Shown here: in pieces, positions 3,762-63,330 of the stretch
Layout: every line of letters starts with the position of its first letter
How positions within the stretch are numbered: the stretch's first letter is position 1
Assembly (NCBI GenBank): GCA_007376445.1
Contig: VMGF01000001.1
Location: forward strand, 316,203 to 380,202
DNA length: 64,000 nucleotides
Origin: Parcubacteria group bacterium Gr01-1014_3
GTDB taxonomy: Bacteria; Patescibacteriota; Minisyncoccia; UBA6257; WO2-44-18
Reading direction: 5' to 3'
Made by a program: the position numbers and the translations under genes
Notes under the pieces: generated by a model
Told to the model about the DNA's origin: nothing
The model's database searches: none
The model's input: the letters and a program-made list of their open reading frames with translations, nothing else

Positions 3762-3866
3762 GTCCCCTTTCGAAAGAAGGGGACTTTTGAATTTCACGGC
3801 CCATTTTTTATTGCGCCGGATTTAACTATCCTAGTGGCTAATCGCTAGTCGCTATATACTATTTAC

Positions 3867-4385
3867 ATGGTGGAATTCGCGACCGAGGGAATTGTTTTAG
3901 ATAAGGAAGATGTTGGCGATTACGACGCCAAAGTTTTTTTATACACCCGGGATTTCGGCAAAATTCAGGGTAAGGTAAAAAGTTTAAGAAAAATCACCTC
4001 CAAGCTAGCCGGCCACCTCGAGCCTTTGAATATGGTGTCTGTCCGGCTGATCAGTAGAAATATTAATTTTTCCAATTTTCAAATTGTGGATGCCCTCAAG
4101 ACCGGGCAACTGCCTTCCACAACCGGCCGGATGACCGCCTTAAGATTGATCAAGGAAATCGCGCCGGAGGGGAATATGGATCTCGCGCTTTGGGATCTTC
4201 TAGTTGGTGGAGAACTTTCCGCCGCCAAAGTTCTTTCTTTGTTGGGTTTTGACCCGACCTTTGCCAGCTGCCAGCAGTGTGGTGATAAAAAACAGCTCAA
4301 TTTTTTAATTAAAAACCTGAACTATTTCTGCGCCCCATGCCTTTCCGTGGCATCTATCTCTGAAAAGGTTTTTGTTCTAAAATAA
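3867..4385 (+). CDS. recO: DNA repair protein RecO (short form)
   Basis: It has an N-terminal OB-fold region GIVLDKEDVGDYDAKVFLYTRDFGKIQGKVKSLRK and a C-terminal CQQCG...CAPC zinc finger. Confidence 0.6.
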   Translation: MVEFATEGIVLDKEDVGDYDAKVFLYTRDFGKIQGKVKSLRKITSKLAGHLEPLNMVSVRLISRNINFSNFQIVDALKTGQLPSTTGRMTALRLIKEIAPEGNMDLALWDLLVGGELSAAKVLSLLGFDPTFASCQQCGDKKQLNFLIKNLNYFCAPCLSVASISEKVFVLK

Positions 4386-4390
4386 GGGAA

Positions 4391-6109: not shown

Positions 6110-6114
6110 TTCCT

Positions 6115-11497: not shown

Positions 11498-13006
11498 ATG
11501 GAGAAATTCTACATAACCACATCCATCCCATATGTAAACGCGACGCCTCATTTGGGCAACGTGCTTGATTCCGTATACGCGGATGTCTTGGCGCGTTATC
11601 ATCGACAGCGAGGCGCGGATGTACGATTTTTGACCGGGTCTGATGAGCATGGTGTGAAAATTGCGCGAAGCGCCGCCGCCCGGTTCGCGGGCGAGCCTCG
11701 CCCATCGGATGGGCGGGAAGCGGTTCCGACAGAAATAATTCAAAGATTCGTAGATGAAACTTCCGCCAAGTTTCGCGCGCTCAAAGAGACCCTGAATCTT
11801 TCCTGGGATGATTTTATTCGCACTTCTGATCAGCAGCGGCATTGGCCTGGCGCGCAAAAACTCTGGAATGCCTTAGCGGCGCAGGGCGATCTATATAAAA
11901 AATCCTACAAGGGACTGTATTGCGTAGGTCATGAAGCTTTTGTGACTGACAAAGATTTGGATAACGGAGTTTGCAAAGATCACCAGAAAAAACCGGAGAT
12001 AATCGCGGAAGAAAACTGGTTTTTCAAACTTTCCAAATATTCTAAAGAGATAGAATCAAGAATCAAGAATCAAGAATTAAGAATAGTGCCGGAGGGAAAA
12101 CGGCATGAGATCCTTTCGCTCCTCAAAGAAGGATTGGAGGACGTGAGTTTTTCTAGGCCCAGCAAGGATTTGTCTTGGGGCGTGCCCGTGCCGGGTGACC
12201 CGACGCAGACGATGTATGTGTGGGCGGACGCTCTGGCCAACTACATTTCCGCTCTTGGTTATGGTTCGACAAGCTCACCACAAGTGGACGACTCTGAAAA
12301 AGACTTTAAAAAATATTGGCCAGCGGATGTACAAGTGATCGGCAAGGACAATCTCCGATTTCACGCTGCGATTTGGCCGGGCATGCTTTTGTCGGCAGGA
12401 TTACCACTGCCCAAAACCGTCTTCGTACACGGATTTTTAACCGTGGATGGCCAGAAAATCTCTAAAACCGTGGGGAATGTCATTGATCCGGTGGAGCTAG
12501 TGAAAAAATATGGTACCGACCCGGTCCGATATTATTTATTACGCGAAGTTTCGCCATTTGAAGATGGCGATTTTAGTTATGAGAAGTTTGAAGCGGCGTA
12601 TAACGGCGATTTGGCTAATGGTATTGGCAATTTTTCCGCGCGAGTCCTGGCCTTGGCGGAGAAAGCGGGGAATCTTGCGGCCGGTAAGGCCTCGCCAGAA
12701 ATAGAAGCCGCCATTCAAAAAACTCGCGAAGAATTAGAAGAAAAAATCGGTGAATATAAATTCCATGAAGCGGCGAGCGTGATTTGGGGGCTTATTTCGT
12801 TCGGTGATTCGTATGTAAACGAAAAAAAGCCGTGGCAAAATCCTGATCCGGGAGTTTTACTGGACCTGGTAACTATTTTAGAAAATGTCGCCGAATTATT
12901 GTCGCCGTTCATTCCGGGAACCGCTGAGAAAATTTCTAAATGCATAGTTCGCGAAGGTAAAATTCTGAAAATTAAAAAAGGCGAGGTTTTGTTTCCTCGC
13001 CTATAG
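11498..13006 (+). CDS. metG: methionyl-tRNA synthetase
   Basis: It has FYITTSIPYVNATPHLGN (HIGH-type) and KISKTVGNVIDP (KMSKS-type) motifs. It carries an in-frame insert IESRIKNQELRI encoded by an aatcaag tandem repeat. Confidence 0.9.
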   Translation: MEKFYITTSIPYVNATPHLGNVLDSVYADVLARYHRQRGADVRFLTGSDEHGVKIARSAAARFAGEPRPSDGREAVPTEIIQRFVDETSAKFRALKETLNLSWDDFIRTSDQQRHWPGAQKLWNALAAQGDLYKKSYKGLYCVGHEAFVTDKDLDNGVCKDHQKKPEIIAEENWFFKLSKYSKEIESRIKNQELRIVPEGKRHEILSLLKEGLEDVSFSRPSKDLSWGVPVPGDPTQTMYVWADALANYISALGYGSTSSPQVDDSEKDFKKYWPADVQVIGKDNLRFHAAIWPGMLLSAGLPLPKTVFVHGFLTVDGQKISKTVGNVIDPVELVKKYGTDPVRYYLLREVSPFEDGDFSYEKFEAAYNGDLANGIGNFSARVLALAEKAGNLAAGKASPEIEAAIQKTREELEEKIGEYKFHEAASVIWGLISFGDSYVNEKKPWQNPDPGVLLDLVTILENVAELLSPFIPGTAEKISKCIVREGKILKIKKGEVLFPRL

Positions 13007-17280: not shown

Positions 17281-19608
17281 ATGGCATATAATTTTAAGAA
17301 AATTGAGGCGGCTTGGCAGAAAGTTTGGGCAAAAAATAAGCATAAAATTTGGGCCGCGGAGGACCAATCCGTCAAACCGAAGCAATATGTTCTCGATATG
17401 TTCCCGTATCCATCCGGCGAGGGCCTTCACGTCGGTCACGTCGAGGGTTATACCGCTTCCGACGTCTATTCTCGCTTTATGCGGATGAATGGCTACAATG
17501 TCGTCCACCCGATGGGCTGGGATGCCTTTGGACTCCCGGCGGAGAATTACGCTATCAAAACCAAACAGCACCCGGAGAAGGTGGTTAAAAAGAATGTAAA
17601 AAGATTCCAGGAGCAATTACAAAGCCTGGGATTCAGTTATGACTGGCAGAGAGAGATCAACACCACCGATCCGGAATATTATAAATGGACACAGTGGATT
17701 TTCGTGCAACTTTTTAAAAAAGGATTGGCATATGAAGCGGAGCTTCCGGTGAACTGGTGCCCGAAAGATAAAACGGTATTGGCAAACGAAGAGGTGGTTG
17801 ATGGTTGCTGTGAGCGGTGCGGGACGGCCGTGGAACGGCGCAATTTAAAGCAGTGGATTTTAAAGATCACTGCTTACGCCGATCGGTTATTAAATGACTT
17901 AGATGGCTTGGATTGGCCGGAGCGCGTTAAAGAAATGCAAAGAAACTGGATCGGCCGATCCGAGGGAGCCATCATTAAGTTTCAAGTTGTAAGTTCTAAG
18001 TTTCAAATTGAAGTTTTCACTACCCGGCCGGACACGCTCGCCGGTGTCACATATATGGTTCTTGCTCCGGAGCATCCACTGATCGGAAAGCTGGTGGTCA
18101 ACGCGGAAAACGTCAAAGAGATCGAGTCGTATATTCAAAAATCCAAGAACAAGAGCGATCGGGAGCGTCAGGAAAATAAAGAAAAAACTGGCGTGGCCTT
18201 GAAGGGGGTCATGGCCGTAAATCCGATCAGCCAAGAAAAAATTCCGGTCTGGATCGCTGACTATGTGTTGGCCCAATATGGGACGGGCGCGATCATGGCC
18301 GTGCCACAACACGACGAGCGTGACCGGGAATTCGCCGAAGCCTTCCATCTTCCGATTATCGATAAGCCCTTGATAGATAAAGAAACGGCTATCCAAAAGG
18401 CAGGGGGTGTAAAAAAAGTTAATTTTAAATTGCGCGACTGGATTTTTTCCCGTCAGAGATACTGGGGCGAGCCGATCCCGATCATTAAATGCCCGACCTG
18501 TGGCAATCAGCCGGTAGCCGAGGAAGATCTTCCGGTAAAATTACCGAATGTTAAGAATTATGAACCGACCGGTAATGCCGAGTCTCCACTCGCCGCTATA
18601 ACGAAGTGGGTCAATGTGAAATGTCCAAAGTGCGGAGGCGACGCCAAGAGAGAAACGAACACGATGCCGCAGTGGGCCGGTTCGTGCTGGTACTACCTCG
18701 CATATCTTATGCGAGGAATTTCCAATTTCCAATTTCCAATTTCCAAATACAAAGAGGTTTTTGATCATTGGCTTCCGGTGGATTTATATTTGGGCGGCGT
18801 GGAGCACGCCGTGCTTCATCTTTTATACGCGAGATTTTGGCACAAGTTTTTATTTGATATCGGCGTAGTTTCCACCAGTGAACCATTCAAAAAACTTGTG
18901 AATCAGGGACTGATTCTTGGCCCGGACGGACAAAAGATGTCCAAGTCCAAGGGTAACGTAGTCAGTCCAGATGAAATGGTGGAAAAATTCGGAGCTGATT
19001 CACTTCGCCTATACGAAATGTTCATGGGCCCGCTTGAAGACGCGAAACCATGGGATCCGACCGGAATCGTGGGCGTTCACCGGTTCCTCGGCAGGATATA
19101 TAACCTTGCGTTAAAAATCCAAAATCCAAAATCCAAAATCCAAAATTCAAAACTTGATCAACTTTTACACAAAACCATAAAAAAAGTTACCGAGGATATT
19201 CAGGGATTTCATTTCAACACCGCCATCAGCGCTCTTATGATCTTGCTGAACGAGATAGAAAAACAGCCGGAGGCCGCGGCCGCGCATGTACCCACGATCG
19301 CTAAGCTGCTTTTCCCGTTAGCGCCACATTTGGCTCAAGAAGTTTGGAAAATGCTGGGCAACAAAGGCTTGCTGGATCACGAAGAGTGGCCGAAGTATGA
19401 AAAGGCGCTGATTGAAGACGCGGAATTTGAACTGGTCATACAGATCAACGGCAAAGTCCGCGATCACGTGATGGTTAAAAAGGGTATTGGTCAGTCGGAG
19501 GCTGAAAAGCTGACACTGAACCGGGAAATAGTGAAGAAGTGGCTGGAAGGAAAGCCGCCCAAGAAGATTATTTTCGTCAAAGACAGGTTGCTCAACGTAA
19601 TTGTTTAA
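17281..19608 (+). CDS. leuS: leucyl-tRNA synthetase
   Basis: It has PYPSGEGLHVGHVEGY (HIGH) and KMSKSKGN motifs plus a CP1 editing domain. It carries three in-frame repeat-encoded inserts: QVVSSKFQIEV, SNFQFPISKYK and KIQNPKSKIQNSK. Confidence 0.95.
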   Translation: MAYNFKKIEAAWQKVWAKNKHKIWAAEDQSVKPKQYVLDMFPYPSGEGLHVGHVEGYTASDVYSRFMRMNGYNVVHPMGWDAFGLPAENYAIKTKQHPEKVVKKNVKRFQEQLQSLGFSYDWQREINTTDPEYYKWTQWIFVQLFKKGLAYEAELPVNWCPKDKTVLANEEVVDGCCERCGTAVERRNLKQWILKITAYADRLLNDLDGLDWPERVKEMQRNWIGRSEGAIIKFQVVSSKFQIEVFTTRPDTLAGVTYMVLAPEHPLIGKLVVNAENVKEIESYIQKSKNKSDRERQENKEKTGVALKGVMAVNPISQEKIPVWIADYVLAQYGTGAIMAVPQHDERDREFAEAFHLPIIDKPLIDKETAIQKAGGVKKVNFKLRDWIFSRQRYWGEPIPIIKCPTCGNQPVAEEDLPVKLPNVKNYEPTGNAESPLAAITKWVNVKCPKCGGDAKRETNTMPQWAGSCWYYLAYLMRGISNFQFPISKYKEVFDHWLPVDLYLGGVEHAVLHLLYARFWHKFLFDIGVVSTSEPFKKLVNQGLILGPDGQKMSKSKGNVVSPDEMVEKFGADSLRLYEMFMGPLEDAKPWDPTGIVGVHRFLGRIYNLALKIQNPKSKIQNSKLDQLLHKTIKKVTEDIQGFHFNTAISALMILLNEIEKQPEAAAAHVPTIAKLLFPLAPHLAQEVWKMLGNKGLLDHEEWPKYEKALIEDAEFELVIQINGKVRDHVMVKKGIGQSEAEKLTLNREIVKKWLEGKPPKKIIFVKDRLLNVIV

Positions 19609-47648: not shown

Positions 47649-48542
47649 ATGTCGGAAATCGAAAAACTGCTTAAAAACTATCTGGATTATCTGGAAATCG
47701 AGAAGAACCGGCTGGTTTTGACCAGGAATAATTATGAGCGGTATCTCCGGGCATTTTTTGAGAACGGCAAGATCGAGAAGTTAAGTCATCTTACTTTGGA
47801 TAAAATAAAGGATTTTCGTCTGGCACTCGCGCGGCGGGATCTCAAAAAATCTACCCAAGCGTACTATGTGATCGCGATCCGGAATTTCTTGAAGTATCTG
47901 ATCAAAGAGGATTATGAAGTTGTTTCGCCGGACAAGATCGAACTGCCCAAGCTTTCCCAGCGGCAGATCGAGATATTGGATACGGCTGATTTTGAAAGAT
48001 TTTTAAAGGCGCCAAAAGGCGATGATCTTCGTACTTTGCGTGACCGGGCGATCTTGGAGGTTTTCTTTTCTACCGGACTTCGTTTGTCGGAGCTCTGTAA
48101 GTTGGACCGGTATCTGAATCTGGAAAGAGGAGAGTTCACCGTGCGGGGCAAGGGTGAGAAGTTGCGGACGGTATTCTTATCTTCAACCGCCCAGGACGCT
48201 ATCAAAAAATATCTGGCTAAACGGCCGGACACTTTGGAGGTTCTTTTCGTGAGTCTCACAAAAGAAAAAGATAACCCGAAAGTGGTTGGTCCGATCACTT
48301 CCCGGTCAGTCCAGCGTATGGTTAACTACTACGCGAAAAAAGCCGGAGTTATGCATAAGATCACTCCGCACGGATTGCGCCATCTTTTCGCGACAGATTT
48401 ATTGATGAACGGCGCCGACATCCGTTCGGTTCAGGAATTATTGGGCCACAGCAATATTTCCACCACCCAGATTTACACGCACGTCACCAATAAGCATCTA
48501 CAGGACGTTCATAAGGCTTTTCACGGAAAACGCAGACGCTAA
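47649..48542 (+). CDS. tyrosine recombinase, XerC/XerD family
   Basis: It has an N-terminal SAM-like domain and the catalytic R...HGLRHLFATDLL...LGHSNISTTQIYTHV with the Tyr nucleophile. Confidence 0.85.
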   Translation: MSEIEKLLKNYLDYLEIEKNRLVLTRNNYERYLRAFFENGKIEKLSHLTLDKIKDFRLALARRDLKKSTQAYYVIAIRNFLKYLIKEDYEVVSPDKIELPKLSQRQIEILDTADFERFLKAPKGDDLRTLRDRAILEVFFSTGLRLSELCKLDRYLNLERGEFTVRGKGEKLRTVFLSSTAQDAIKKYLAKRPDTLEVLFVSLTKEKDNPKVVGPITSRSVQRMVNYYAKKAGVMHKITPHGLRHLFATDLLMNGADIRSVQELLGHSNISTTQIYTHVTNKHLQDVHKAFHGKRRR

Positions 48543-48563
48543 TGTTGTATAATTAGGAATATG

Positions 48564-48684
48564 CCAGGTAGTGAAAACTCGAGCAATGAATTCAGCGAGA
48601 AAGCTAAGTTTTTACTATCCAGCATGCCAGGCAAGGAGACTCGGTCCTGTCTGGCAAAACTAAACTCGAGTTTCTACTACCTGG
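48564..48684. repeat. Family A inverted-repeat element, copy 3 (121 nt, carries a ~60-nt nested internal insertion)
   Basis: Its termini are ccaggtagtgaaaactcgag ... cctgtctggcaaaactaaactcgagtttctactacctgg. The outer halves are colinear with copy 1. The internal segment itself contains a degenerate end-to-start junction (tttttactatccagcatgccagg). It ends 1 nt before the ATG at 48686. Confidence 0.8.
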
Positions 48685-48685
48685 T

Positions 48686-50053
48686 ATGCGATTAGTTGAA
48701 AAATTCTTTGTAATTGTAGCTTTGGTTCTGGGCGGATGCGCGGTTATTGCAGCGATGGAGCCGAACTATGCCCTGGCGGCTTCCAAGATTATTTCTATCA
48801 GCATAGATAATCCGGATGGGCCGTTAAAATCATCTACGGTTAGTTTCTCTATACCATTTGGCCTGGCGCCGATCAACTTAACCGACGCGATGAATTGGAA
48901 TTCAAGCGCGAGGCGGCTTGAGATCGATCTCGGTTCGTTCACCACCAAAGAAACCAAGACGGTAATTTTTGCTATCGAAGGCGAGCTCGGAAATTATTTA
49001 GTGAGCGGTGAGATCACCGGCGTCTGGCCGAAAACCAACTCGTTGCCGGAAGAATCTTTCAAAGGCACGATCGATCCATTCGTGGTGCTGATCGAGCCGG
49101 AAGGTAGCCAATCTTCAGTTTTAGAATTTCTGGACAATCTTAGGCGTGATCCTCGCGTGGCCGGTCCTATGGCCAAGATCGCCCAGCCGGTTTCCGTGGC
49201 TCTAGGCGCCGTTGGCACAGCCGCCGCGGCTGCCAACGCTTTTATGACGAGCCCGGCGCTTCTCGCCGAGCTTTCCCGCCTGCTCAGCTTGTTTGGCTTC
49301 GGTATGTTCCGTCTTAAAAAACGGAAGCCATGGGGTCGGGTCTACGACCGCCTGACTGATAATCCGATCTATGGAGCGGTAGTTAAAATATTTGATTCAA
49401 AATATAAATTGGCGAAAGAAACGCAGACCACGGACAAAGAAGGTCGTTTTGGATTTTTAGTTTCGTCGGGCGAGTATTACATCCGCATTATACGCGCCGG
49501 CTATGAAGATTATCAGTCCGCGCTTATTAAAATTTCCCAGCCGGATCAGTCTTTGATCTTGGATGTGCCGATGGTAGTAACGGGAGCAACGATAAAGAGG
49601 CCAATGATCAACACCCTGAAACTCAAGCAGCAGCTTCGTGACGTTTTTTATGTCAGCGGTTTGGCGCTGACGGTGATCGGCAGTCTGATCAGCTTGGCGG
49701 TGGCGCTGATAGTGCCGAGTATACTCAACTACGGGATCGTGTTGGTTTATCTGATCCTCTGGGTCTTCCGGATTGGGATGGCGCACGAGCATGTTAAATC
49801 TTTCGGCAAAGTTTTGGATAAGTCCACGAATAAACCGGTGGATCTGGCCGTGGTCAGATTATTCTCCGCCGATCAATCCTGGTTATTGGAGACGCGAGTG
49901 ACCGACGCGAGCGGCAAGTTCCGTTTCTTGGTGAATCACGGCGGTTATTATGTGACTGCCGTCAGAGAAGGATATGGGTCTTTCCAGTCCGCTCCGCTAG
50001 AACTTAAGAAATCCGACGTCTTCGCGCACGATATTAAAATAGAGAGGGCATAG
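48686..50053 (+). CDS. membrane protein with two carboxypeptidase-regulatory-like (CarboxypepD_reg) domains
   Basis: It has an N-terminal TM. Two homologous blocks, VVKIFDSKYKLAKETQTTDKEGRFGFLVSSGEYYIRIIRAGYEDYQS and VVRLFSADQSWLLETRVTDASGKFRFLVNHGGYYVTAVREGYGSFQS, are separated by TM helices. Confidence 0.5.
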   Translation: MRLVEKFFVIVALVLGGCAVIAAMEPNYALAASKIISISIDNPDGPLKSSTVSFSIPFGLAPINLTDAMNWNSSARRLEIDLGSFTTKETKTVIFAIEGELGNYLVSGEITGVWPKTNSLPEESFKGTIDPFVVLIEPEGSQSSVLEFLDNLRRDPRVAGPMAKIAQPVSVALGAVGTAAAAANAFMTSPALLAELSRLLSLFGFGMFRLKKRKPWGRVYDRLTDNPIYGAVVKIFDSKYKLAKETQTTDKEGRFGFLVSSGEYYIRIIRAGYEDYQSALIKISQPDQSLILDVPMVVTGATIKRPMINTLKLKQQLRDVFYVSGLALTVIGSLISLAVALIVPSILNYGIVLVYLILWVFRIGMAHEHVKSFGKVLDKSTNKPVDLAVVRLFSADQSWLLETRVTDASGKFRFLVNHGGYYVTAVREGYGSFQSAPLELKKSDVFAHDIKIERA

Positions 50054-51729: not shown

Positions 51730-52770
51730 ATGCAGCGAAAAATCATCATCGGTATTTTGGTTATTATCGGGATAGCTTTACTTTTCTGGTTCGTGTCAAA
51801 ACCGGCGGCTCGGACCGTGGCTTTCCATCAGTATTTTATTGAGAACCGATATTTCGCGCCGGATCCGACCAAATTAGATTTGGAGAATATGGAAGCGGTG
51901 TTCCAGCATGTTTTTCTCGCGCTGGATTCAGCCGTAATGGTTTATCCCACGGAAAATTATTATTATTTCGTGCTGAATGTGTCCTCCGAAGGAGGATCGG
52001 CCTCCGGCGGAGATGGAAAGCCCATTCGACAGGCTCAGGGCAAGCCGATCTGGGGGAATTTGCATCTGGGCCCGGAGTCGCGCGACGCCGGGTTGATAGA
52101 TTTTGCTTACTGGGAATTCAAGGACCAGCCACGGCTGGCAAGTGCGCCTGATTTAGAAAATGATCGTTCGGTGAAATACCGCCAGTTCGGAAAAGCCGAT
52201 GGCCTGGTCATTAAAAAATTAACCGGTCTTCAATACCAGATTTCATATCGCGGGAAAACGGTTCTTTTTTCCATGAACCATCTCCCCCAAACACCGCCGA
52301 AGAATTTTCCTTTAAGGCCAGGCGAAGTTTTCACGCAGAAAACCTTTGATGAATCGGGATACAGCTTTTTTCTGATCAGAAATATGATGCCGCCAGCTTT
52401 TTCTTTCGTGCTTAATGATGAAGTTGACCTGCCCGAACCGCTGACCCCCATTCATAAAAATATTTGGATCGGGAAAAAATCCGGATTCGTATTTTATGAA
52501 GATCCAGAGGATCATCGCAAGACCTTGATCGGCATCAGCCAGGTAAATGCCAGTAAAAATAACTATTATGACGGCCCATTTGATCAGCTGGCGGATAATT
52601 ACGTGAAAGGGGATGAATTTAAGGACGCGATCTTGGCTGTTTATCCGTTACTGGCCGGCAAGATCGATAAGTATGGGCAGTTTTTAGACCGCGCGGGCGC
52701 CCGTTTGGCGATCGCTCCCTATCAAACCTATGAAAAGCTTGAGGATCTATATGATATAATTAAAAAATGA
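51730..52770 (+). CDS. hypothetical membrane-anchored protein
   Basis: It has an N-terminal TM and no recognisable motifs. Confidence 0.4.
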   Translation: MQRKIIIGILVIIGIALLFWFVSKPAARTVAFHQYFIENRYFAPDPTKLDLENMEAVFQHVFLALDSAVMVYPTENYYYFVLNVSSEGGSASGGDGKPIRQAQGKPIWGNLHLGPESRDAGLIDFAYWEFKDQPRLASAPDLENDRSVKYRQFGKADGLVIKKLTGLQYQISYRGKTVLFSMNHLPQTPPKNFPLRPGEVFTQKTFDESGYSFFLIRNMMPPAFSFVLNDEVDLPEPLTPIHKNIWIGKKSGFVFYEDPEDHRKTLIGISQVNASKNNYYDGPFDQLADNYVKGDEFKDAILAVYPLLAGKIDKYGQFLDRAGARLAIAPYQTYEKLEDLYDIIKK

Positions 52771-53111
52771 TTGAAGAAGATAAAAAGAAGAAAAAGCTCC
52801 GGCTTATCGTCTGGGCTCTGACCACCTCATTTGTTTTATTGGTAATTTGCGTTTTCACGGCGCTAGGTTTGAATCCATTTTATCCACTAGGTACTCCGAA
52901 GGGTTATATTCCGACCGTTACTTTGGCCCTGGACCGTTCCATTTTTGGACAGGAGCCGTTGGTTTTGGCGAGCGTGAGTTTGCCGATGATGGTACCACCG
53001 CTTCCGACCACGCTGGCTTTCCCAATGCCGAAACTGGAAGCCGAACTTAATTTAGATAAGAAATTTTCCCCGGTTATCACTCCAACTGTTACTTATAAAC
53101 CAGCTTATTAA
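52767..53111 (+). CDS. hypothetical small membrane protein
   Basis: It has an N-terminal TM. It overlaps the upstream stop and abuts the 53113 gene, consistent with an operon with the surface protein. Confidence 0.35.
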   Translation: MIEEDKKKKKLRLIVWALTTSFVLLVICVFTALGLNPFYPLGTPKGYIPTVTLALDRSIFGQEPLVLASVSLPMMVPPLPTTLAFPMPKLEAELNLDKKFSPVITPTVTYKPAY

Positions 53112-53112
53112 A

Positions 53113-55560
53113 ATGGCCGATCTGAATCCAGCAAAACCAAAAACTCCGGACCAGTCCGCCTCTGACCGATTGGTTAAAAAAGACAATCGCAGGCTCACCT
53201 GGACGATAGTTGGGTTAATTACCGTAGTCACGCTTCTGCTTTTATGTATTTTACCGGGCAGTCCGGCGCTTGCCGTTCTTTTGAAATTGCCGGAAAAAGC
53301 CCAGCCAGTGATTACTAAGCTTGAGTCAATCTCTTTTGATCCAGTTGGCCCGTCTTCCGGTTCCGGCGGCGGATCTTCCAGCGTCGAGTTTCCAGTCGGG
53401 TCTTCCATTATAGTTAATGTTCCGCCCGATTTGACTAGGCCTCGACCCACGCCAACTCCTCCTCGCCGTTGGCCTGACTGTGTTCGTCCGGTTATCGGCA
53501 TCACCACGGCTACCACCGAAATTGAAGAATGTCCGGATTCCAGTATTCCAAAACCACCGCCACCGCCACCAACTCCAGTACCGGGTGAACCGAAGAAGCC
53601 AGCGGTCTTTGATTTCGGAGACGCGCCGGATAAGCCGAAAGGCGGTTTCCCATCATTACTATCCAGCAGCGGAGCCAGGCACTTTGACGTGAGCCGGTTT
53701 TATTTGGGCAAACGCGTGGATGTTGAGGGAGATTCTAAGCAGGTAGATGCCGATAGTGCCACTCCGCCAGCCGGTGTCGGTCCTGACGATGGTTTGAATA
53801 TAACCCTAAGTCTTGGCGTGGGCGCCGCGGGTACGGCTCTTGTAGATGGCATCGCGGAAATTCACAATAATAATTGGCCGGAAGAAAAACCGATCTATTT
53901 AAATGCCTTATATGATTTCAATAACAATCTTCAATGGGACATTCCAGGAGAGCACGTAGTTACCGATTATGAATTACACATTCCGCCAGGCGAGAGCGTG
54001 TACGGCAATATTATTTCCTTAAGCGCGAATAGATTAAATTGGCTCCGGGCCACGGTCTCAGAAATTCCACTTGGACTCGGCTATAACGGTTCCTGGTCAA
54101 AGGCGTTTGATTTTGGTGAAACTGAAGATTATTTCAAGCCGGAAATTTATCCTATCCATATAGTCAAAGGTTCGCACTTCGTCTTTACGTCGGAGGATAG
54201 AGAGCACAAGTGGGGTCCTTCGCAGATACATATAACTGGACCTACATACGGAGTTCCGGTAGAGACAGGGGGAGGTAGGCCAAAAGATCCCGGCCCAGCC
54301 ACGATTGATATGACCAAGCCGACTCCAGCCAAGCCAGGAACCGATGTTCCGACCTTTGATCCACGGCTGTTTACCCATGAAGGGGCAACGACGCGTCTGA
54401 CTCCGAGAAAACCAGGGTCAAACGTTGATCCGAACCCGACTTCTTTAATCATTACCTTACCGACGCAGCGGGGTGGATTATCGGTGGTGAATATATTTCC
54501 GATTCCAGATTTCTTAACCAGCGCCATTACTCAAATTCAAATTCGCAATCTCGAGCGGACATTGTTTCATCTGGAGCAGTTAGCGGATCGCCCGATTACT
54601 AGAATCCGAACAGTTCAGAAAGAGATCGAGGTACTCAAAGAAGTTATCAAGCTTGTGCCGACCCCGACTACACCGATCGGCGGTATCACCGCGCCGGCGC
54701 AGTATAAAATTGAGGTAATCGGTATCGATACCGGCAAAGGAACAATGGACATTCAGGCCTATGGCTTTGTATCCGGCAATAATGAGGTTGAAATATTGGA
54801 ATACTCTGCCAACGGACAATTACTTAATAAAACCAGCAAGCCATTTAATACCGCGAGTTTCCGGTTTGAATTTAAGAGTTTCTCAGGAGCCGTCTCGATA
54901 GTAATGCGATTGGTTCATAATGGCGATGTAGTGCCGGGTACTAGCATTAATGTTCCGTCCGTGGCTACGATAACCGGGGGACTGAGCGGCGCTGGGCCAC
55001 AGTGCCAATACACGATCTCGCTGGACGATACTCTTGCTGATGGGACGGCGAATACCGCTTACAGCCAGACAGTTACCGCGACCGGTGGCAGTGGCTCATA
55101 TACCTACGCCGTTACGGCTGGTTCTTTACCAACAGGCCTGACCCTTGCTTCTAACGGAACAATTACCGGCACGCCGACTACCGCCGCGACCTACGCATTT
55201 ACGATCACCGCGACGGATGTTAGCGGCTGTACCGCAAGCCGGGCATATTCTGTGACTATTGCCAGCGCTTGCCCAACCGTTTCTTTCTCTCCTACCGACT
55301 TCGTAGATGGTCAAGATGGGCGTGCAAGCGATACGAGCGTAGCTGGTACCTTGACTTCCAGTACCGGAACAGGAAGTAACCAGGCTTTGAATATGCCTCC
55401 TGGGGTTGATGTGAATATATCTGGATCTGGCACGGGTGTTATAACCTGGAACATACTTGGTACGCCTATAGGCGTGGGCGATTACTCCTTTACCGCTAGG
55501 ATAGCAGTTGCTGGTTGTTCTAATTTAGATACACCATTTACTTGGACGGTTACGCCTTAA
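53113..55560 (+). CDS. large surface protein with GEVED-like domain and C-terminal He_PIG (putative Ig) domain
   Basis: It has an N-terminal TM and a Pro-rich linker. The block FDFGDAPDKPKGGFPSLLSSSGARH...DVEGDSKQVDAD...GETEDYF is GEVED-like. The C-terminus YSQTVTATGGSGSYTYAVTAGSLPTGLTLASNGTITGTPT matches He_PIG. A terminator ccagctcctttattggagctgg lies at about 55583-55610. Confidence 0.6.
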   Translation: MADLNPAKPKTPDQSASDRLVKKDNRRLTWTIVGLITVVTLLLLCILPGSPALAVLLKLPEKAQPVITKLESISFDPVGPSSGSGGGSSSVEFPVGSSIIVNVPPDLTRPRPTPTPPRRWPDCVRPVIGITTATTEIEECPDSSIPKPPPPPPTPVPGEPKKPAVFDFGDAPDKPKGGFPSLLSSSGARHFDVSRFYLGKRVDVEGDSKQVDADSATPPAGVGPDDGLNITLSLGVGAAGTALVDGIAEIHNNNWPEEKPIYLNALYDFNNNLQWDIPGEHVVTDYELHIPPGESVYGNIISLSANRLNWLRATVSEIPLGLGYNGSWSKAFDFGETEDYFKPEIYPIHIVKGSHFVFTSEDREHKWGPSQIHITGPTYGVPVETGGGRPKDPGPATIDMTKPTPAKPGTDVPTFDPRLFTHEGATTRLTPRKPGSNVDPNPTSLIITLPTQRGGLSVVNIFPIPDFLTSAITQIQIRNLERTLFHLEQLADRPITRIRTVQKEIEVLKEVIKLVPTPTTPIGGITAPAQYKIEVIGIDTGKGTMDIQAYGFVSGNNEVEILEYSANGQLLNKTSKPFNTASFRFEFKSFSGAVSIVMRLVHNGDVVPGTSINVPSVATITGGLSGAGPQCQYTISLDDTLADGTANTAYSQTVTATGGSGSYTYAVTAGSLPTGLTLASNGTITGTPTTAATYAFTITATDVSGCTASRAYSVTIASACPTVSFSPTDFVDGQDGRASDTSVAGTLTSSTGTGSNQALNMPPGVDVNISGSGTGVITWNILGTPIGVGDYSFTARIAVAGCSNLDTPFTWTVTP

Positions 55561-55627
55561 AACTCTAACCTGTTAACAAAACCAGCTCCTTTATTGGAGC
55601 TGGTTTTGTTATAATAAAATGGAATGA

Positions 55628-55746
55628 ATCCCGTTAGAAGCAACTGGTCAATAATTATGAAAAACGATCTCATTTTTACGATAACCCTAGAATCAAATAG
55701 TCGGGCACTTTACGGTCGTCTAATGACGACCTGCTTCTAACGGGAT
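55628..55746. repeat. Family B inverted-repeat element, copy 2 (119 nt, inverted relative to copy 1)
   Basis: atcccgttagaagcaac ... cggtcgtctaatgacgacctgcttctaacgggat. The last AT of the right terminus plus a flanking G forms the start codon of the 55745 gene. Confidence 0.85.
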
Positions 55747-58700
55747 GAAGAAGATCCTCTTTTTAGCCACTGGCGCGGTTTTAATCGTTTTACTAGCAAT
55801 GATCGCTTACGGCTATGCTTTTTATCGTAGCCTGAATCCATTTATAGTTTTTGATCCGGGATTTTATTTTACTCCACAGCTCGAGTTGGTTTTAAAAACC
55901 AAGGGCCAGCCTTCCGCGGCGGGTCAACAGGCGAGCGTTTTAGAAACGCTCACGCTTCCGATCGTCTGGCCACCGATTACCGGAAGCTCGGTATTTAATT
56001 TCACTCTACCCAGCCAGGTTTCCGCTGCCTTGGAGTCTAACGGCCAGCTTGTTAACCCATATTTAGTTTTGAGTTTTGCGTTAGTTCCTAGCGAGGGCGT
56101 TTCTTCGGTGCCACCTCTCACGGTGGGCGAATTGTCATTTGAGCCAATCGTTCCACCAGCCGCGACGGGGGAGTTCGAGTTGATTTTGCCGATCACAAGC
56201 GATCAAGAAAATGTTAGCGTGGTTCTACCGCCGAGCCTGATCGCCGCCTACAATAATCTTGCTAACGAAATTATCGCCGCCGAGGAAGCTGGTGGAGCAG
56301 AAGAGTCTTCGGCGACTGGTGGTTCGTCTGTTTCCAGCGGAGGAACGGCACCGTCTAGTGGGGCTGGTTCGCCAGCTTCTGGCGCAGGCTTACCCGCCCC
56401 TGGCGTTGGCTCCACGGGTTCAGCTCCATCATCTGGCGGATCACCGTCTTCTGGTAGTGGTACAGGAGCGCCTGGCGGTTCTAGCGTGCCTGCTTCTGGT
56501 TCTGGTTTTCCCACCTCTGGCTCGGGCTTTCCTGCCTCTGGCACTGGTTTACCAGCACCATCGAATGTGATTACTGAGACCGCGTCCGAACCAGGAATTA
56601 TCGAATCTTTTATCAACGCCATCGACGATGCCGTGGTCGCCATCAATGAATTTTTTACCGAACCATTCACTTCGATATTTATTGGAGAGCCAACTGACAC
56701 ACCTTCCACGCCATCGACTATCGTTTCATCATCAGGAACTGGCGGTGCGACATCGGCAGGTTCTGTTCCCGGCACTACGGTGCTCGCGCCTGCTGGCAGT
56801 ACTGCTACTTCTCCGGTTACATCAGGCACTTCTGGTTCCACGGCTACTGGCGGAACAGGACCGACGGCTCCCACGTCAGGCACCACCGCGACTTCGCCAT
56901 CCGGCATTTCTGCGACCGCTCCTGCTACATCAGTTTCAGCCCCGGCAACTGGCGATTCCACAGGATTTTTTGATAATGTTTTCAGCGCGATTGATACCGC
57001 AGTTACTTCAATCACAGGCTTCTTTATTGATCCGATAGTGACGACGGTTACTTCGATTTCGGATTCTATCAATATCATTGCCACAAATCTGCAACCCACC
57101 GTGTATCGGGATCTTGGTGACGCGCCCGCACCAGGGAATGGCGGGAATTATCCGTCGTTACTCGTAGATAACGGTTCTCGCCACAAAATTACCTTCCCAT
57201 TGTATTTAGGTTACTTGGTAGATGTCGAGCCAGACTCGCTTCAGGTAGATGACGATAATTTCGATGATGGCTTTGAGTCAACCACTTGGCTGATTAAAAT
57301 TTCCAATAACAGCTGGACCGAAGGGCCGATCTATCTCAATATGCTGATTGATCTTAATCACGACGGCGATTGGGACGAATCCGATACGGAGTGGGCTGTG
57401 AAAAATCAGCAGGTCATAGTTCCTGCCGGTACTTCCAAGACAGTCTTGCCACTCATCTCCAATCTGCTGGTTGGTTTGAATTTCCCGATCACGGATACTT
57501 GGATTCGCCTGACAGTTACTGCCACGCCGGTGGACGCTCCATATATCGGCACCGGAAGTTTCATGTATGGTGAGTCGGAAGATTATTTTGTGACGATCAA
57601 AACTCCACCACCACCAGCTAAAGCGTCTGTTTATAACAGCGGTGTGCCAGCAGTAAAACTGCCCGGAAAATTGGTTGGAGATATTGTTTCTGAGGTTGTT
57701 ATTGTAACTTCACCGACTGCCGATCCGGGCGGCTCTCCGGCCCCTAAGCCATCGGGAGTGGATACGGTGAATCAGTATGACCATCAGATCGAAGGATCTT
57801 TCTGGCATAGTTATCAATCAACTTACTACGAATGGAAGAAGCGTACCGAGGTTGAGACAGTCTCTGCCGGCAAAGCACCAGGCGTTGCGCCAGCTCCGGC
57901 TCCAGCCCCCACTCCATCAACGCCAGGACCGAGTACTGGTGGAACAACATCAGCGGATCGTCCACCATACGATCATCAAACCGAAGGATCTTTCTGGCAT
58001 AGCTACAGCGATTCATACTATCGTTGGAAAAATACGATTGAAGTTCCGGTTTCTACTGGCAAGCCTCCGGTTTCCGCGCCAACTCCAGCGCCAACTCCAA
58101 CTCCAACTCCAGCCCCAACTCCAGCGCCAACGCCAACTCCCGGCTCGGTCCGGCCGGATGGTTTTAAATATACCTACCACGTCTTCAACTCCAGCGATTA
58201 TGTTCCAGGTGTTTATCATATTGGCGAGACCACTGACATTAAATACACCGATCCGGGCATTGAGAAAGATGGTTATAGAGTTACCCCATTACCGTTCTAC
58301 TGCGCCGATTCTTCAAGCGATTCAGACAACTGCACCCCACCGAAGCCAATAGCCGTCGAAGATCTACCTTCAGTCCCAAGCGTGGATACATCAAAGCCGT
58401 TAATCACGCCGGTTACAGTTGTTATTGACGAAATTCCTGGCGGAGCCGGTAGCGATGTTTTGACTGCCCCGTCAGTATTCCAGAGGATTTTTGATAGCAT
58501 TACGGAATTTTTAAGCGTGGAGCCAGCCACACCGTCGATCCATGACACCATCCTTTCAATTCGTATTAAGAATCTTCGCGATACCGCCACGCAACCAGCG
58601 CCATTACCTTCTCCGATCGTACCTATTGAACCAACGCCCGGTCCTAAAACACCATTCTCGCCAACCGAACCACCGTATGTAGTCCCTCCCGTAGTTATTC

Positions 58701-60223
58701 CAAGTGAACCGGGTTTCTTTGATAGATTAAAAGAGCTCTTCAGTTTCGGGCCGGAAATAATTCCAAGCAAAGACTACGATCTTCCAGGCGCTATTGATGA
58801 GGAAATGACTCGTACTATCTATACGTCTCCAGATAAGTTGAAATGTTCCGGTGGAGATTGTCCGGGAGGCGAGCAGTCTGTCATACAACAATCGCCGGCG
58901 GAATCACAACCAATTCATCAAGTAACATTGAGTGGATTCGAAAGAGCCAAGGAGGGCGTAACCGAGGTATTTAATAGCGCCGTCGAGGGAGCTCAAAAAC
59001 TCAGTGATGTGATTTTCCAGGATATTAGAATAACTCTCAATCCGGAAATAGCCCCTCTTACCCAAGAAAACCTTGACGCGCAACGATCCTTATTCTCAAC
59101 CGAGTCGGTTTCAGAAGTCACCGTGTTCGGTACCGACTATTCCACCGTGGTTCAGCGGGAAATTCCCACGATCAGCGTAACCGCCGAGACACCATTGGTG
59201 GTCCAGAGAATCGTTCAGCAGGATGCGATTAATAAACTGGAGGGTATTATCACTCAGCCGACCACGGTGATAATTTCCCCGATTGAGCAAACATTCCTGC
59301 GATTACAGCAAAGCCTGCAAACTCTTAATGAGAGCGTGCAGAAATTCGCGGACCGACAGAATTTAGTTGTTCAGCAGCCGTTGGTGTTGCCTACGGACGC
59401 GGCTCAAATCACGCCGGATAAGATTCTTGTTGATGGAAAATTGGTTGATCAGTCGCTCGCGGAAATTGCCGCGAAACCAAATCAATGCTGGCTTTCCTCC
59501 AGCAACGACGGAACAAAAGTCCTCTTAAACATCGAGGTTAACGGCACAACTCCGACTGGCCAAATCGCTAGCGCGGACGCGGTAGCCGAAGGATATGATG
59601 ACTTTAATAACGTGGTATTTAGGGAGGTTATTGGCGGAAGACCGATTTCCGGCACCGCTTCGGCCGATCTATTGGTTAGTTATTACAGCCAGCCTAGAGA
59701 CTCCGCGCGTATCAGTAATAGAGTGCTATCGCTTGTTCCGACTCCGACATTCTTCGGCGGCTCTGGTATACCGGCTTATAAAAGAGTTTCCGTTAAACTG
59801 ATCGGCAGGAACGGAACAAACTGTGCCGATTCAAATTCTAATCAGGGAGCTTCCGGCGCCTCGTCAATCCAAAATCCGGCCGGAGGAGCCGGACAAACGG
59901 TTCTTTCCATCACACCCGCGGCGACTTGCGGAGCGGTAACGGTATTGCCAGCCACTTTACCGGATGGCTCCGAGACCCCGCCGCTACTATACAACCAGAC
60001 TGTTTCAGCTTCAAACGCTGGAGGTTCAACCTTTACCTTCGCGGTTACCGCCGGTTCATTGCCGAACGGCCTGTCTTTGGACGCAAACACTGGAGTGATT
60101 ACCGGCACGCCGACTAGAGCTGATACATTCAACTTCACAATCACCGCGACACCGGTTGGCGACTGCTCGGCTACCACTGGCTCCAGGGCTTATACGATAG
60201 TTGTGCTTGGAGGTGGCGCGTAA
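55745..60223 (+). CDS. giant surface protein (1492 aa) paralogous to the 53113 gene: TM, S/G/T/P low-complexity linkers, GEVED-like domain, internal tandem repeats, C-terminal He_PIG domain
   Basis: It has YRDLGDAPAPGNGGNYPSLLVDNGSRH...DVEPDSLQVDDD...GESEDYF. A duplicated module YDHQ(I/T)EGSFWHSY..YY.WK occurs twice. A PTPAPTPTPTPAPTPAPTPTP tract lies at 58078-58140. The C-terminus is YNQTVSASNAGGSTFTFAVTAGSLPNGLSLDANTGVITGTPT. Confidence 0.6.
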   Translation: MKKILFLATGAVLIVLLAMIAYGYAFYRSLNPFIVFDPGFYFTPQLELVLKTKGQPSAAGQQASVLETLTLPIVWPPITGSSVFNFTLPSQVSAALESNGQLVNPYLVLSFALVPSEGVSSVPPLTVGELSFEPIVPPAATGEFELILPITSDQENVSVVLPPSLIAAYNNLANEIIAAEEAGGAEESSATGGSSVSSGGTAPSSGAGSPASGAGLPAPGVGSTGSAPSSGGSPSSGSGTGAPGGSSVPASGSGFPTSGSGFPASGTGLPAPSNVITETASEPGIIESFINAIDDAVVAINEFFTEPFTSIFIGEPTDTPSTPSTIVSSSGTGGATSAGSVPGTTVLAPAGSTATSPVTSGTSGSTATGGTGPTAPTSGTTATSPSGISATAPATSVSAPATGDSTGFFDNVFSAIDTAVTSITGFFIDPIVTTVTSISDSINIIATNLQPTVYRDLGDAPAPGNGGNYPSLLVDNGSRHKITFPLYLGYLVDVEPDSLQVDDDNFDDGFESTTWLIKISNNSWTEGPIYLNMLIDLNHDGDWDESDTEWAVKNQQVIVPAGTSKTVLPLISNLLVGLNFPITDTWIRLTVTATPVDAPYIGTGSFMYGESEDYFVTIKTPPPPAKASVYNSGVPAVKLPGKLVGDIVSEVVIVTSPTADPGGSPAPKPSGVDTVNQYDHQIEGSFWHSYQSTYYEWKKRTEVETVSAGKAPGVAPAPAPAPTPSTPGPSTGGTTSADRPPYDHQTEGSFWHSYSDSYYRWKNTIEVPVSTGKPPVSAPTPAPTPTPTPAPTPAPTPTPGSVRPDGFKYTYHVFNSSDYVPGVYHIGETTDIKYTDPGIEKDGYRVTPLPFYCADSSSDSDNCTPPKPIAVEDLPSVPSVDTSKPLITPVTVVIDEIPGGAGSDVLTAPSVFQRIFDSITEFLSVEPATPSIHDTILSIRIKNLRDTATQPAPLPSPIVPIEPTPGPKTPFSPTEPPYVVPPVVIPSEPGFFDRLKELFSFGPEIIPSKDYDLPGAIDEEMTRTIYTSPDKLKCSGGDCPGGEQSVIQQSPAESQPIHQVTLSGFERAKEGVTEVFNSAVEGAQKLSDVIFQDIRITLNPEIAPLTQENLDAQRSLFSTESVSEVTVFGTDYSTVVQREIPTISVTAETPLVVQRIVQQDAINKLEGIITQPTTVIISPIEQTFLRLQQSLQTLNESVQKFADRQNLVVQQPLVLPTDAAQITPDKILVDGKLVDQSLAEIAAKPNQCWLSSSNDGTKVLLNIEVNGTTPTGQIASADAVAEGYDDFNNVVFREVIGGRPISGTASADLLVSYYSQPRDSARISNRVLSLVPTPTFFGGSGIPAYKRVSVKLIGRNGTNCADSNSNQGASGASSIQNPAGGAGQTVLSITPAATCGAVTVLPATLPDGSETPPLLYNQTVSASNAGGSTFTFAVTAGSLPNGLSLDANTGVITGTPTRADTFNFTITATPVGDCSATTGSRAYTIVVLGGGA

Positions 60224-62076: not shown

Positions 62077-62433
62077 TTAAAGTATTGATTTCACAATAAA
62101 GACTACGGCACGAGACAATAGCGCTACTGCCACGCCGACAGCGGCAAAGATGATAACGCTCTTGGCTTTATTGATATTCTCTTCACTACCTCCAGCAGTC
62201 AAGTAGAGATAAGCCGCGTATAAAGTCATTACCGTCGCTAATAATATCAAACCAGTGAACAAATAATTGATCAATGTTTCGATGATTCTAATAACATCTT
62301 GGACGTTCTTAACGGCCGGTTCTGGAGGAGTTTGGATACCACTCTGGGCAAGCGAGAGCGATGGTGAAATGGCCATCAGGGACGCTATGCCAATTTTTTT
62401 AAGATTTAATTTCATATATTGAATAATGTACAC
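62077..62433 (-). CDS. TrbC/VirB2-like T4SS-pilin family small protein (paralog 1 of 3)
   Basis: It has a signal peptide and two TM helices, with the shared motif LYAAYLYLTAGGSEENINKAKSVIIFAAVGVAVAL. Confidence 0.5.
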   Translation of the reverse strand: MYIIQYMKLNLKKIGIASLMAISPSLSLAQSGIQTPPEPAVKNVQDVIRIIETLINYLFTGLILLATVMTLYAAYLYLTAGGSEENINKAKSVIIFAAVGVAVALLSRAVVFIVKSIL

Positions 62434-62464
62434 GACCTTTTTGGGATATTTATATTATACCATA

Positions 62465-62851
62465 TCATTTCGCCTTATATCCTATCAAATCAGCCACTAT
62501 CAGTGAGATACCATTGGATACTAATAAAATAGCGAAACCGATAGCGGCGTAAAGAATGGTTTTTTTGCCAGTTTCAATCTTGCCCGGATCTCCGGCGGAC
62601 GACATTATCATGAAAGCTCCATATAGCACCATGATCGTGACAATCGGAATGGCGATCACAAGCAAGCCCCGGATAATTTTATCGAGAAGTTCGGTGATAC
62701 TGCCTACCGATAGAGGATTCGGAAGCTCCGAGGCATCGGTGCTATCAGACCCCGGATCTCTAAATGGTTGAGCGGTGGCCAGAGAAGGAATCAAGAATAA
62801 AGAATTAAGAATTATGAATGAAGCGAAGATTATGATGAAAGATTTGGTCAT
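62465..62851 (-). CDS. TrbC/VirB2-like T4SS-pilin family small protein (paralog 2 of 3)
   Basis: It has a signal peptide ending ATAQP and the motif LYGAFMIMSSAGDPGKIETGKKTILYAAIGFAILL. Confidence 0.5.
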   Translation of the reverse strand: MTKSFIIIFASFIILNSLFLIPSLATAQPFRDPGSDSTDASELPNPLSVGSITELLDKIIRGLLVIAIPIVTIMVLYGAFMIMSSAGDPGKIETGKKTILYAAIGFAILLVSNGISLIVADLIGYKAK

Positions 62852-62904
62852 TTATTTATTGTATCTTTTTTTGATTCTAGATTCTAGCTATTAGATACTG
62901 GCTT

Positions 62905-63330
62905 CTATTGAATATATGTCGTGGTGGTCGGTATTAGGTTAATGATTGCTTTGATAATTAACCAAGAACCCATGGCGATAGCTACACCGATAACCGCCGC
63001 GTAGATGATCTTTTTACCGCTATCTACTTTCCCGCTATTTCCACCGGCGGTCATTATCTCGAAAGCACCATACACGATAAATCCGGTGGCGAGCGGGATG
63101 CTGATACCAACCGCGTAGTTAATGAGGTTTTTTAGGAATTTGATGAAAGCGGGGATGTTGCAGGATTTGGGGTCGCTAGGCGGAAGCGCCGGATCGCAAT
63201 CGATAGTACTGCTTAGGGAGGGTTGGGCGTGGGCCGGCAAGGCAGTTAGAAGGTATAAGTTAAAAGTTATAAGGCTAAGAAAAAGCAGAGACACAGCAAA
63301 AATGGTTTTTAGATTTAAATATTTAAACAT
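62905..63330 (-). CDS. TrbC/VirB2-like T4SS-pilin family small protein (paralog 3 of 3)
   Basis: It has a signal peptide ending AHAQP and the motif VYGAFEIMTAGGNSGKVDSGKKIIYAAVIGVAIAM. Confidence 0.5.
   Translation of the reverse strand: MFKYLNLKTIFAVSLLFLSLITFNLYLLTALPAHAQPSLSSTIDCDPALPPSDPKSCNIPAFIKFLKNLINYAVGISIPLATGFIVYGAFEIMTAGGNSGKVDSGKKIIYAAVIGVAIAMGSWLIIKAIINLIPTTTTYIQ

Follow-up and report, generated by a model that had tools for sequence, protein, structure and literature searches.

Two putatively adhesin-like surface proteins with a full-size GEVED-type module, encoded in a conserved gene cassette of Parcubacteria

The GEVED domain (PF20009) was defined from the NR3 region of CshA, a fibrillar adhesin of Streptococcus gordonii, and is termed a 'stalk domain', or partner domain, of fibrillar adhesins (PMC10952558). 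Little is known of how bacteria of the candidate phyla radiation (CPR) attach to other cells, and 'hypothetical' is the annotation given to most of their large envelope proteins. Here, we describe two neighbouring genes on the plus strand of a 64,000-nucleotide (nt) stretch of a groundwater genome, that of Parcubacteria group bacterium Gr01-1014_3 (contig VMGF01000001.1; the whole stretch is hereafter called the window), the products of which, of 815 and 1492 amino acids (aa), are referred to as pA and pB. On balance, we lean slightly towards the view that both are N-terminally anchored, surface-exposed and adhesin-like tethers. Our additions to an earlier description made from the letters alone (the sequence-only reading) are a conserved cassette to which the two genes belong, a contrast in evolutionary rate between pA and its neighbours, the redefinition of a shared module as a full-size GEVED domain and a corrected start of pB. 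Together, these give the two proteins a likely topology, map their domains, place them in a conserved genomic context and point to a fast-evolving region as a candidate for partner specificity. The value of the work lies in annotation and in the generation of hypotheses, and current views are not overturned by it.

Two adjacent open reading frames had been proposed and were borne out at 53113..55560 (pA) and 55745..60223 (pB), both on the plus strand. With masses of 86 and 155 kDa the proteins are large, but calling them 'giant' overstated their size. Each has a single strongly hydrophobic segment according to hydropathy (approximately residues 26-60 in pA and 1-30 in pB), in agreement with the predicted N-terminal transmembrane anchor, and the predicted P/S/G/T linkers were likewise evident from a composition scan, where P, S, G, T and A made up as much as 0.94 of a 50-residue block. 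Read from its N-terminus, pA comprises a basic tail, a transmembrane helix, a juxtamembrane and P-rich linker, a GEVED-type module, a variable centre, a He_PIG domain and a degenerate He_PIG-like tail. The predicted helix (approximately residues 29-50; 53197..53262) has a hydropathy peak of 2.49 over residues 26-60, unique in pA, and is preceded by the K/R-rich tail RLVKKDNRR. In the first half of pB, a transmembrane helix and a probable domain resembling the small upstream protein pS (together residues 7-84; 55763..55996; assigned from pairwise similarity to pS) are followed by two S/G/T/A/P-rich spacers (residues 185-280 and 316-404; 56297..56956), recognised from composition, motifs and Tandem Repeats Finder (TRF), and by the GEVED-type module. 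An F-rich amphipathic segment follows each spacer, IIESFINAIDDAVVAINEFF and GFFDNVFSAIDTAVTSITGFF, with weaker copies further towards the C-terminus. The second half holds a duplicated YDHQ unit with PA/PT linkers, a long variable region, a Cys-bracketed beta-rich region (residues 1246-1394, Cys1248/Cys1360; 59480..59926), which lies inside a stretch 68% identical in a contig from the Hainich aquifer (L001), and, directly after it, a He_PIG domain. Sequence searches with the fast-evolving centre of pA (residues 346-630; 54148..55002) and with pB residues 620-1394 returned no Pfam family or PDB match.

Surface exposure of the two proteins can be inferred with good support, because an N-terminal anchor with a basic tail, acidic ectodomains (isoelectric points of 4.97 in pA and 4.27 in pB), paired Cys residues and domain families of secreted or surface type all argue for an extracytoplasmic location. 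Outside the membrane helix, the Cys residues fall into seven short-range pairs, namely 123/140, 631/706 and 720/802 in pA and 853/863, 1034/1039, 1248/1360 and 1395/1474 in pB, Cys45 within the pA helix being the sole exception, and all four C-terminal Cys of pB are retained in the Hainich orthologue. Neither protein has an LPXTG motif or a lipobox, and no anchor family, SLH or other wall-binding family was detected in the Pfam scan.

The CPR origin suggested for this DNA was supported, as pB is 100% identical to a protein of 'Parcubacteria group bacterium Gr01-1014_3' that is annotated as hypothetical. The public annotation of this protein (G01um10143_395, 1474 aa) begins at M19 and drops the N-terminal hydrophobic helix, and an exact-sequence lookup of full-length pB came back empty because the public gene call begins 18 codons later. 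A start at 55745, giving the longer protein, has better support, since the alignment between pS and pB spans pB residues 7-30. A homology search with whole pB was dominated by He_PIG matches covering 4-8% of the query and was little informative for the rest of the protein.

The homologous domain of approximately 170 aa noted earlier was recovered by BLASTP (pA 162-341 against pB 450-615, 38% identity, E 3e-23), ending in GETEDYF in pA and GESEDYF in pB. Its assignment to GEVED stood for pB, narrowly (PF20009, 25.9 bits against a cutoff of 24.4), with a match over residues 530-617 that covers profile positions 1-78 of 78, but not for pA, where Pfam GEVED scored 12.6 bits (E 0.25) over residues 263-341. 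With a profile of the extended module, both were found at high scores, 233 bits for pA (residues 161-345; 53593..54147) and 269 bits for pB (residues 448-620; 57086..57604), and the pA module is counted as GEVED-type because of this match and of its homology to the pB module. The eponymous motif is present as GETED in pA and GESED in pB, and in an alignment of 28 modules G162, E163, E165 and D166 are invariant and the central V is variable.

A word-indexed search with the module gave three relatives only. An exhaustive search by HMMER, with a profile built from five sequences, returned 5,686 cluster representatives at E <= 1e-3, with 2,226 at E <= 1e-10 and 386 at E <= 1e-30. These relatives are mostly very large proteins with many copies, at most 34 matched stretches in one protein of 7,658 aa; the period in the arrays is approximately 172 residues, and the best 150 proteins contained 229 full-length instances. 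Shared over the whole module is the motif set D[FY]GDAP, YPTL, GARH, D.E.DGQP, DDEDGV, NAWIDFN.DGDW, ARFR and GEVEDY. Fourteen positions are invariant in the 28 sequences, mostly G, D and E plus one H. Among ten relatives scanned with Pfam, GEVED was confined to the C-terminal half of the unit in eight, and their various partner domains included a type IX secretion system (T9SS) sorting tail, CARDB, VWA, dockerin, PKD and peptidase domains. Because the relatives share the motif set of the whole unit, with Pfam GEVED confined to its C-terminal half, the shared block is, judged from these sequence patterns, a full-size GEVED domain of which the 78-position Pfam model spans the second half only. 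A model that spans half of a domain of approximately 175 residues affects the annotation of thousands of large surface proteins.

When modelled with AlphaFold2 from 28 sequences, the pB module was predicted as one compact, mainly beta domain (predicted local distance difference test, pLDDT, 79.3; predicted template modelling score, pTM, 0.78), and this run superseded one from five sequences that was too weak (pLDDT 56). Foldseek searches of the PDB with the model gave no match at E <= 1e-3, only generic beta-sandwiches with template modelling (TM) scores of 0.3-0.4, including the X325 copper-binding protein as best match, Fn3-like domains of C5a peptidase and GH2 sandwich domains; PDB sequence searches with the module profile, pA and pB yielded nothing meaningful. 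The X325 match was not taken as functional evidence (TM 0.36-0.41, 17% identity, E about 3e-3). The module has 25-27 acidic residues in about 175, and is possibly stabilised by calcium through its acidic invariant positions. The same acidic character and the invariant D/E/H positions could instead indicate that the GEVED-type module and the Ig-like domains capture substrates or ions, scavenging nutrients by binding a polysaccharide, metal ions or a mineral surface rather than attaching to other cells. The dockerin, CARDB, peptidase and VWA domains of the relatives and the copper-binding function of the best structural match would fit such a role, which we nevertheless regard as decidedly unlikely in view of the weakness of that match and the generic nature of the others, the lack of any carbohydrate-binding or enzymatic family in Pfam and NCBIfam, and a cassette without a transporter or hydrolase gene.

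The He_PIG assignment was upheld for both proteins (PF05345, cutoff 24 bits), with 58.3 bits in pA and 49.0 bits in pB, C-terminal in each case. Between the two domains, identity is 52% (BLASTP, pA 631-716 against pB 1395-1487, E 5e-17). In pA the domain (residues 631-716; 55003..55260) is bracketed by Cys631 and Cys706, with a Pfam match over 641-716 and 101.6 bits to a locally built profile; in pB (residues 1395-1487; 59927..60205) the corresponding residues are Cys1395 and Cys1474, the Pfam match spans 1404-1487 and the local profile gives 78.2 bits. A possible second, degenerate He_PIG-like domain follows in pA (residues 720-798, Cys720/Cys802; 55270..55506), where the match is weak, at 6.6 bits (independent E 8e-4) with the local profile and below detection with Pfam.

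A new finding is that pA and pB are part of a cassette, which starts at 51730 and contains the genes w346 and pS followed by large genes with the module and He_PIG. The first gene, w346 (51730..52770, plus strand), encodes 346 aa with an N-terminal hydrophobic segment, and its stop codon overlaps the start of pS (ATGA). The second, pS (52767..53111, plus strand), encodes a 114-aa protein with a single transmembrane segment and stops 1 nt 5' of the pA ATG. The order recurs in related Parcubacteria, at five further loci that are distinct and come from different samples, designated L003 to L008, of which L007 and L008 represent one locus from two sources. In all of these, w346 has an orthologue (41-75% BLAST identity) that is immediately followed by pS-like and large He_PIG genes; identity to pS is 89.5% in L004 and 34-43% in L003, L005 and L006. 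After the w346-like gene, the encoded proteins are of 140, 752 and 259 aa in L003, 114 and at least 702 aa in L004 (where the contig ends), 131 and 1097 aa in L005, 336, 132, 789 and 1618 aa in L006, and 455 and 1447 aa in L007/L008. The module is present in every large cassette protein, He_PIG exceeds the Pfam cutoff in all of those in L003-L007, and it is the last domain wherever the C-terminus falls within the locus; the 1447-aa protein of L007 carries a second He_PIG copy analogous to that of pA (15.4 bits, local profile). Searches of NCBIfam and PADLOC gave zero matches for any cassette protein.

The surroundings are partly shared as well. Upstream, iPGM is found on the opposite strand in most cassette loci, and downstream L005 resembles the window in having an SPFH gene, a small downstream gene and T4SS-pilin-like genes. 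The Hainich contig L001 encodes the last ~390 aa of a pB orthologue, at 68-69% identity, and then carries the same two downstream genes. Neither the pB centre nor the pS profile picked up a relative when species-representative genomes were scanned, and the cassette clade seems to be absent from that genome set. Within the window, no second copy of the module, He_PIG or pS was found elsewhere.

A pairwise comparison of pS with the N-terminus of pB gave 31% identity (E 8e-5), and the pS profile matched the N-terminus of the pB-like 1618-aa protein of L006 (45.6 bits, E 3e-15), which itself aligns with pB at E 0.004. On pB of the window, the pS profile reached 0.1 bits, below significance, and after this failure we downgraded the pS-like domain at the pB N-terminus to probable. 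We also considered and rejected that pS and pA are a single frameshifted gene; each has its own transmembrane helix and the split is kept in L003-L006. The w346 family comprises at least 2,945 proteins without annotation, of about 350-400 aa, in CPR, Dadabacteria and large-genome bacteria, with conserved motifs that include YPTENYYYF and NNYYDGPFDQLADNY, and had zero matches in Pfam, NCBIfam and PDB. The homologues outside Parcubacteria (Dadabacteria metagenome-assembled genome, 2.65-Mb genome) have no pS-like or large He_PIG neighbours.

Rates of change differ strongly along the cassette, as seen in comparison with L004, the closest relative of the window. Identity is 83% for iPGM and 80% for w346, and falls to 49.6% for pA as a whole. 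Within pA, the anchor and linker (65-67%, with 67% in the transmembrane helix), the module (60.5%) and He_PIG (64%) are considerably better conserved than residues 346-630, which are 25-31% identical with many gaps. By these sequence comparisons, pA evolves much faster than its neighbours iPGM, w346 and pS.

These rates bear on the possibility that pA and pB are structural envelope proteins, acting as wall-spanning spacers or as S-layer or wall anchors and binding nothing outside the cell. Their acidic, S/T/G/P/A-rich composition, long spacers, N-terminal membrane anchoring and F-rich amphipathic segments recurring between spacers would suit such a role, as would a conserved cassette with two small membrane proteins as possible envelope partners. 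We consider it fairly unlikely, as core structural envelope proteins are usually more constrained than the pA centre (25-31% identity against 80-90% for the neighbours), the large genes vary widely among related genomes (259 to 1618 aa, one to three genes), and Pfam revealed no SLH or other wall-binding family.

The description of pA and pB as tandem paralogues holds, although their duplication is an old one. When the modules were placed in a neighbour-joining tree, that of pA clustered with its L004 orthologue and that of pB with the 259-aa protein of L003 and the 1447-aa protein of L007, and the pA/pB split is therefore older than these lineages; on this tree, we rejected recent tandem duplication as the origin of the pair. 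Within the L006 cassette (2390-6160), the 336-aa product of a short gene with the module alone and the 789-aa pA-like protein have modules that are 75% identical, with a third module-bearing gene following, which points to a recent duplication in that locus.

Internal repeats and their variability formed another part of the sequence-only reading. The YDHQxEGSFWHSY module does occur twice in pB, at residues 678 and 742 (alignment score 181 against 38 +/- 6 for shuffles), as a tandem duplication of ~64 residues made up of the YDHQ unit and a PA/PT linker (residues 678-741 and 742-800; 57776..58144, plus strand), the DNA copies of which are 87% identical over 38 nt (TRF scores 75-92). The PT-coding microsatellite at 58076-58140 is a tandem repeat and has the highest TRF score of the window (92), but it is imperfect, with periods of 6, 12 and 18 and with longest perfect runs of two 12-mers or about 3.5 hexamers; perfect repeat runs are at most 24-27 nt. 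Of the S/G repeats placed at 56290-56560, the part at 56495-56550 was confirmed by TRF (21 bp x 2.7, 77% matches), while the remainder is protein low complexity encoded by mixed codons. The suggestion that these repeats are likely to vary in length found no support at strain level, the repeats being short and imperfect and an independent assembly being identical across them. Over 13,862 nt, repeats included, this assembly (Logan, run SRR8863434, designated L002) agrees with the window without a single mismatch, which speaks against collapse by a single assembler and would still be compatible with a collapse common to both assemblies or with heterogeneity at the read level. The microsatellite part of the earlier description was thus overstated, although the observation as a whole was largely right.

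Between species, linker lengths do vary at equivalent positions; the 752-aa protein of L003, for instance, has a long (TPPP)n tract before the module, against about 18 residues at that place in pA. Such differences, and the PT tract as the strongest tandem repeat of the window, would be expected if pA and pB were phase- or length-variable contingency genes whose DNA repeats slip in replication and switch or resize the proteins within the population. We find this very improbable. Because all repeat units are multiples of three nt, slippage could resize a protein but not switch it off by a change of frame; the perfect runs are limited to the lengths given above, the S/G region is not a DNA repeat, and all repeats are identical in the second assembly. 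Of the features of a simple-sequence contingency locus, a long, near-perfect, slippable repeat is accordingly lacking, and length heterogeneity was not seen between the two assemblies.

Between pA and pB, a hairpin with a T-rich tail 3' of the pA stop (55574..55611, plus strand; 16-bp stem, -27.1 kcal/mol, z = -9.1 against shuffles) is a candidate intrinsic terminator. It is overlapped by an extended -10 box, TGtTATAAT, at 55607-55615, which was read by eye, the consensus scan making no call. The following pB leader (55620..55746, plus strand) is structured (-43.6 kcal/mol, z = -5.0, with 0/200 shuffles folding as well), and the region of the pB start codon lies in a stem closed by CCCGTTAGAAGCA/TGCTTCTAACGGG, a perfect inverted repeat of 13 nt; Rfam gave no family match for the leader. 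From these signals, pB appears to have its own promoter, separate from pA, and the leader may be a translational control element that sequesters the start-codon region. For pA, the gene overlap, the 1-nt spacing and the hairpin after its stop suggest that it would be co-transcribed and translationally coupled with w346 and pS, pB being expressed from its own promoter through the structured leader. In L003 and L006, only 34-40 nt separate two large genes, so the pA-pB spacer is not conserved there.

The remainder of the window also holds housekeeping genes and seven tRNAs. Just upstream of iPGM, at 47649-50053, a XerC/D-type tyrosine recombinase (297 aa) adjoins a 455-aa multi-pass membrane protein, which carries two CarboxypepD_reg-like domains. 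Downstream of pB, the segment 60001-62000, with the SPFH gene and a 165-aa gene, has a G+C content of 0.565, against 0.44-0.52 elsewhere. Three consecutive small genes on the minus strand at 62077-63330 match or nearly match T4SS_pilin (PF18895); a functional link between these and the cassette was considered and not found, the genes lying on the opposite strand with two genes intervening. Open reading frames also contain five A/T-rich tandem repeats that have a period of 7 and 4-5.6 copies and are in some cases perfect, at 540-568, 7067-7103, 12052-12084, 18717-18746 and 19114-19152, two of them within a LeuRS-like gene (17281-19608), where they encode ISNFQFPISK and KIQNPKSKIQNSK. These repeats are odd in having a period that is not a multiple of three within housekeeping genes.

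Returning to the view of pA and pB as adhesin-like tethers, the N-terminal helix would hold each protein in the membrane with its short basic tail inside the cell and the remainder outside, and the P/S/T/G-rich spacers would carry the folded parts outward, probably across the wall. The folded parts would be the acidic GEVED-type beta-sandwich of ~175 residues, the fast-evolving region without a family and one or two He_PIG domains at the distal C-terminal tip, and the proteins would bind another cell or a surface. Specificity is likely to be determined by the fast-evolving centres, which match no family, rather than by GEVED or He_PIG. An adhesin-like role is plausible because GEVED was defined from the CshA adhesin and because pA evolves faster than its neighbours.

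Several points weigh against this view. The Pfam scan (E <= 1) found no recognised ligand-binding, that is adhesive, domain in pA or pB, the GEVED and He_PIG domains are of stalk or partner type, and they are single-copy rather than the tandem stalk arrays typical of fibrillar adhesins. The structural similarity of the module model is to generic beta-sandwiches alone (Foldseek TM 0.3-0.4) and describes a fold without a functional lead. The rapid divergence of pA could reflect relaxed constraint instead of selection, and the linkage to w346 may be plain synteny in a narrow clade, iPGM being syntenic too. The topology was read from hydropathy, and the N-terminus of pB may be cleaved. The two proteins are known here from sequence and models, from which we infer adhesion.

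Host attachment, proposed earlier for such proteins in CPR bacteria, is plausible, and none of the evidence here links pA or pB to a host. A broader version, in which the four-gene cassette (w346, pS and one gene each of pA and pB type) serves an episymbiotic clade of Parcubacteria as a lineage-specific apparatus for host recognition, strikes us as unlikely. Under it, w346 and pS, as conserved small membrane proteins, would serve to assemble the large ones or to keep them in the envelope, specificity for a host or partner would be set by the hypervariable centres and by repeated gain, loss and duplication of large genes, and the structured leader of pB would add conditional control of translation.

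Compared with known systems, pA and pB resemble CshA and other GEVED proteins in that the C-terminal half of the module fits the GEVED model, with GE(S/T)EDY, and in that those, too, are extracellular surface proteins. Unlike CshA, they have no NR2-type adhesive domain upstream of GEVED, no C-terminal wall anchor and no repeat region; their predicted anchor is an N-terminal transmembrane helix, and the motif reads GESED or GETED, not GEVED. The CshA/B NR2 domain is absent from both according to the Pfam scan at E <= 1, which returned only He_PIG, GEVED and two weak Ig-type matches, and the stretch preceding the Pfam GEVED match belongs to the same compact domain, as its D[FY]GDAP...GARH half. 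In this respect they also depart from the Pfam model itself, as the unit of about 175 residues includes this N-terminal part outside the 78 positions.

Among the multi-GEVED giants, P0046 (7,658 aa, 34 matched stretches) and P0047 (12 copies, ~172-aa period) share the full module and motif set with pA and pB, but carry it in long tandem arrays, whereas pA and pB are N-terminally anchored and contain a single copy each. The module relatives P0159 and P0102 end in T9SS sorting tails, unlike pA and pB, and neither LPXTG, a T9SS tail nor an autotransporter barrel was found as a recognised anchor in the two proteins. The Sphingomonas and Sphingopyxis He_PIG proteins (~2,350 aa, P0018-P0026) are likewise surface-exposed and multi-domain, and their He_PIG domains are 40-56% identical over about 90 residues. 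Unlike pA and pB, they have many Ig-type repeats and an autotransporter barrel, and the similarity is limited to 4-8% of pB. An outer-membrane beta-barrel is irrelevant to the CPR envelope.

In relation to fibrillar adhesins as a class, the polarity of pA and pB is inverted, with the anchor at the N-terminus and an Ig-like domain at the far C-terminus. Instead of a tandem stalk array, each has one module, with one He_PIG domain in pB and one plus a doubtful second in pA, and extension would come from low-complexity spacers. Since they have no known adhesive domain and their stalk domains are single, pA and pB are outside the class as it is usually defined. What they have in common with fibrillar adhesins is their build as long, spacer-rich surface proteins with stalk-type domains.

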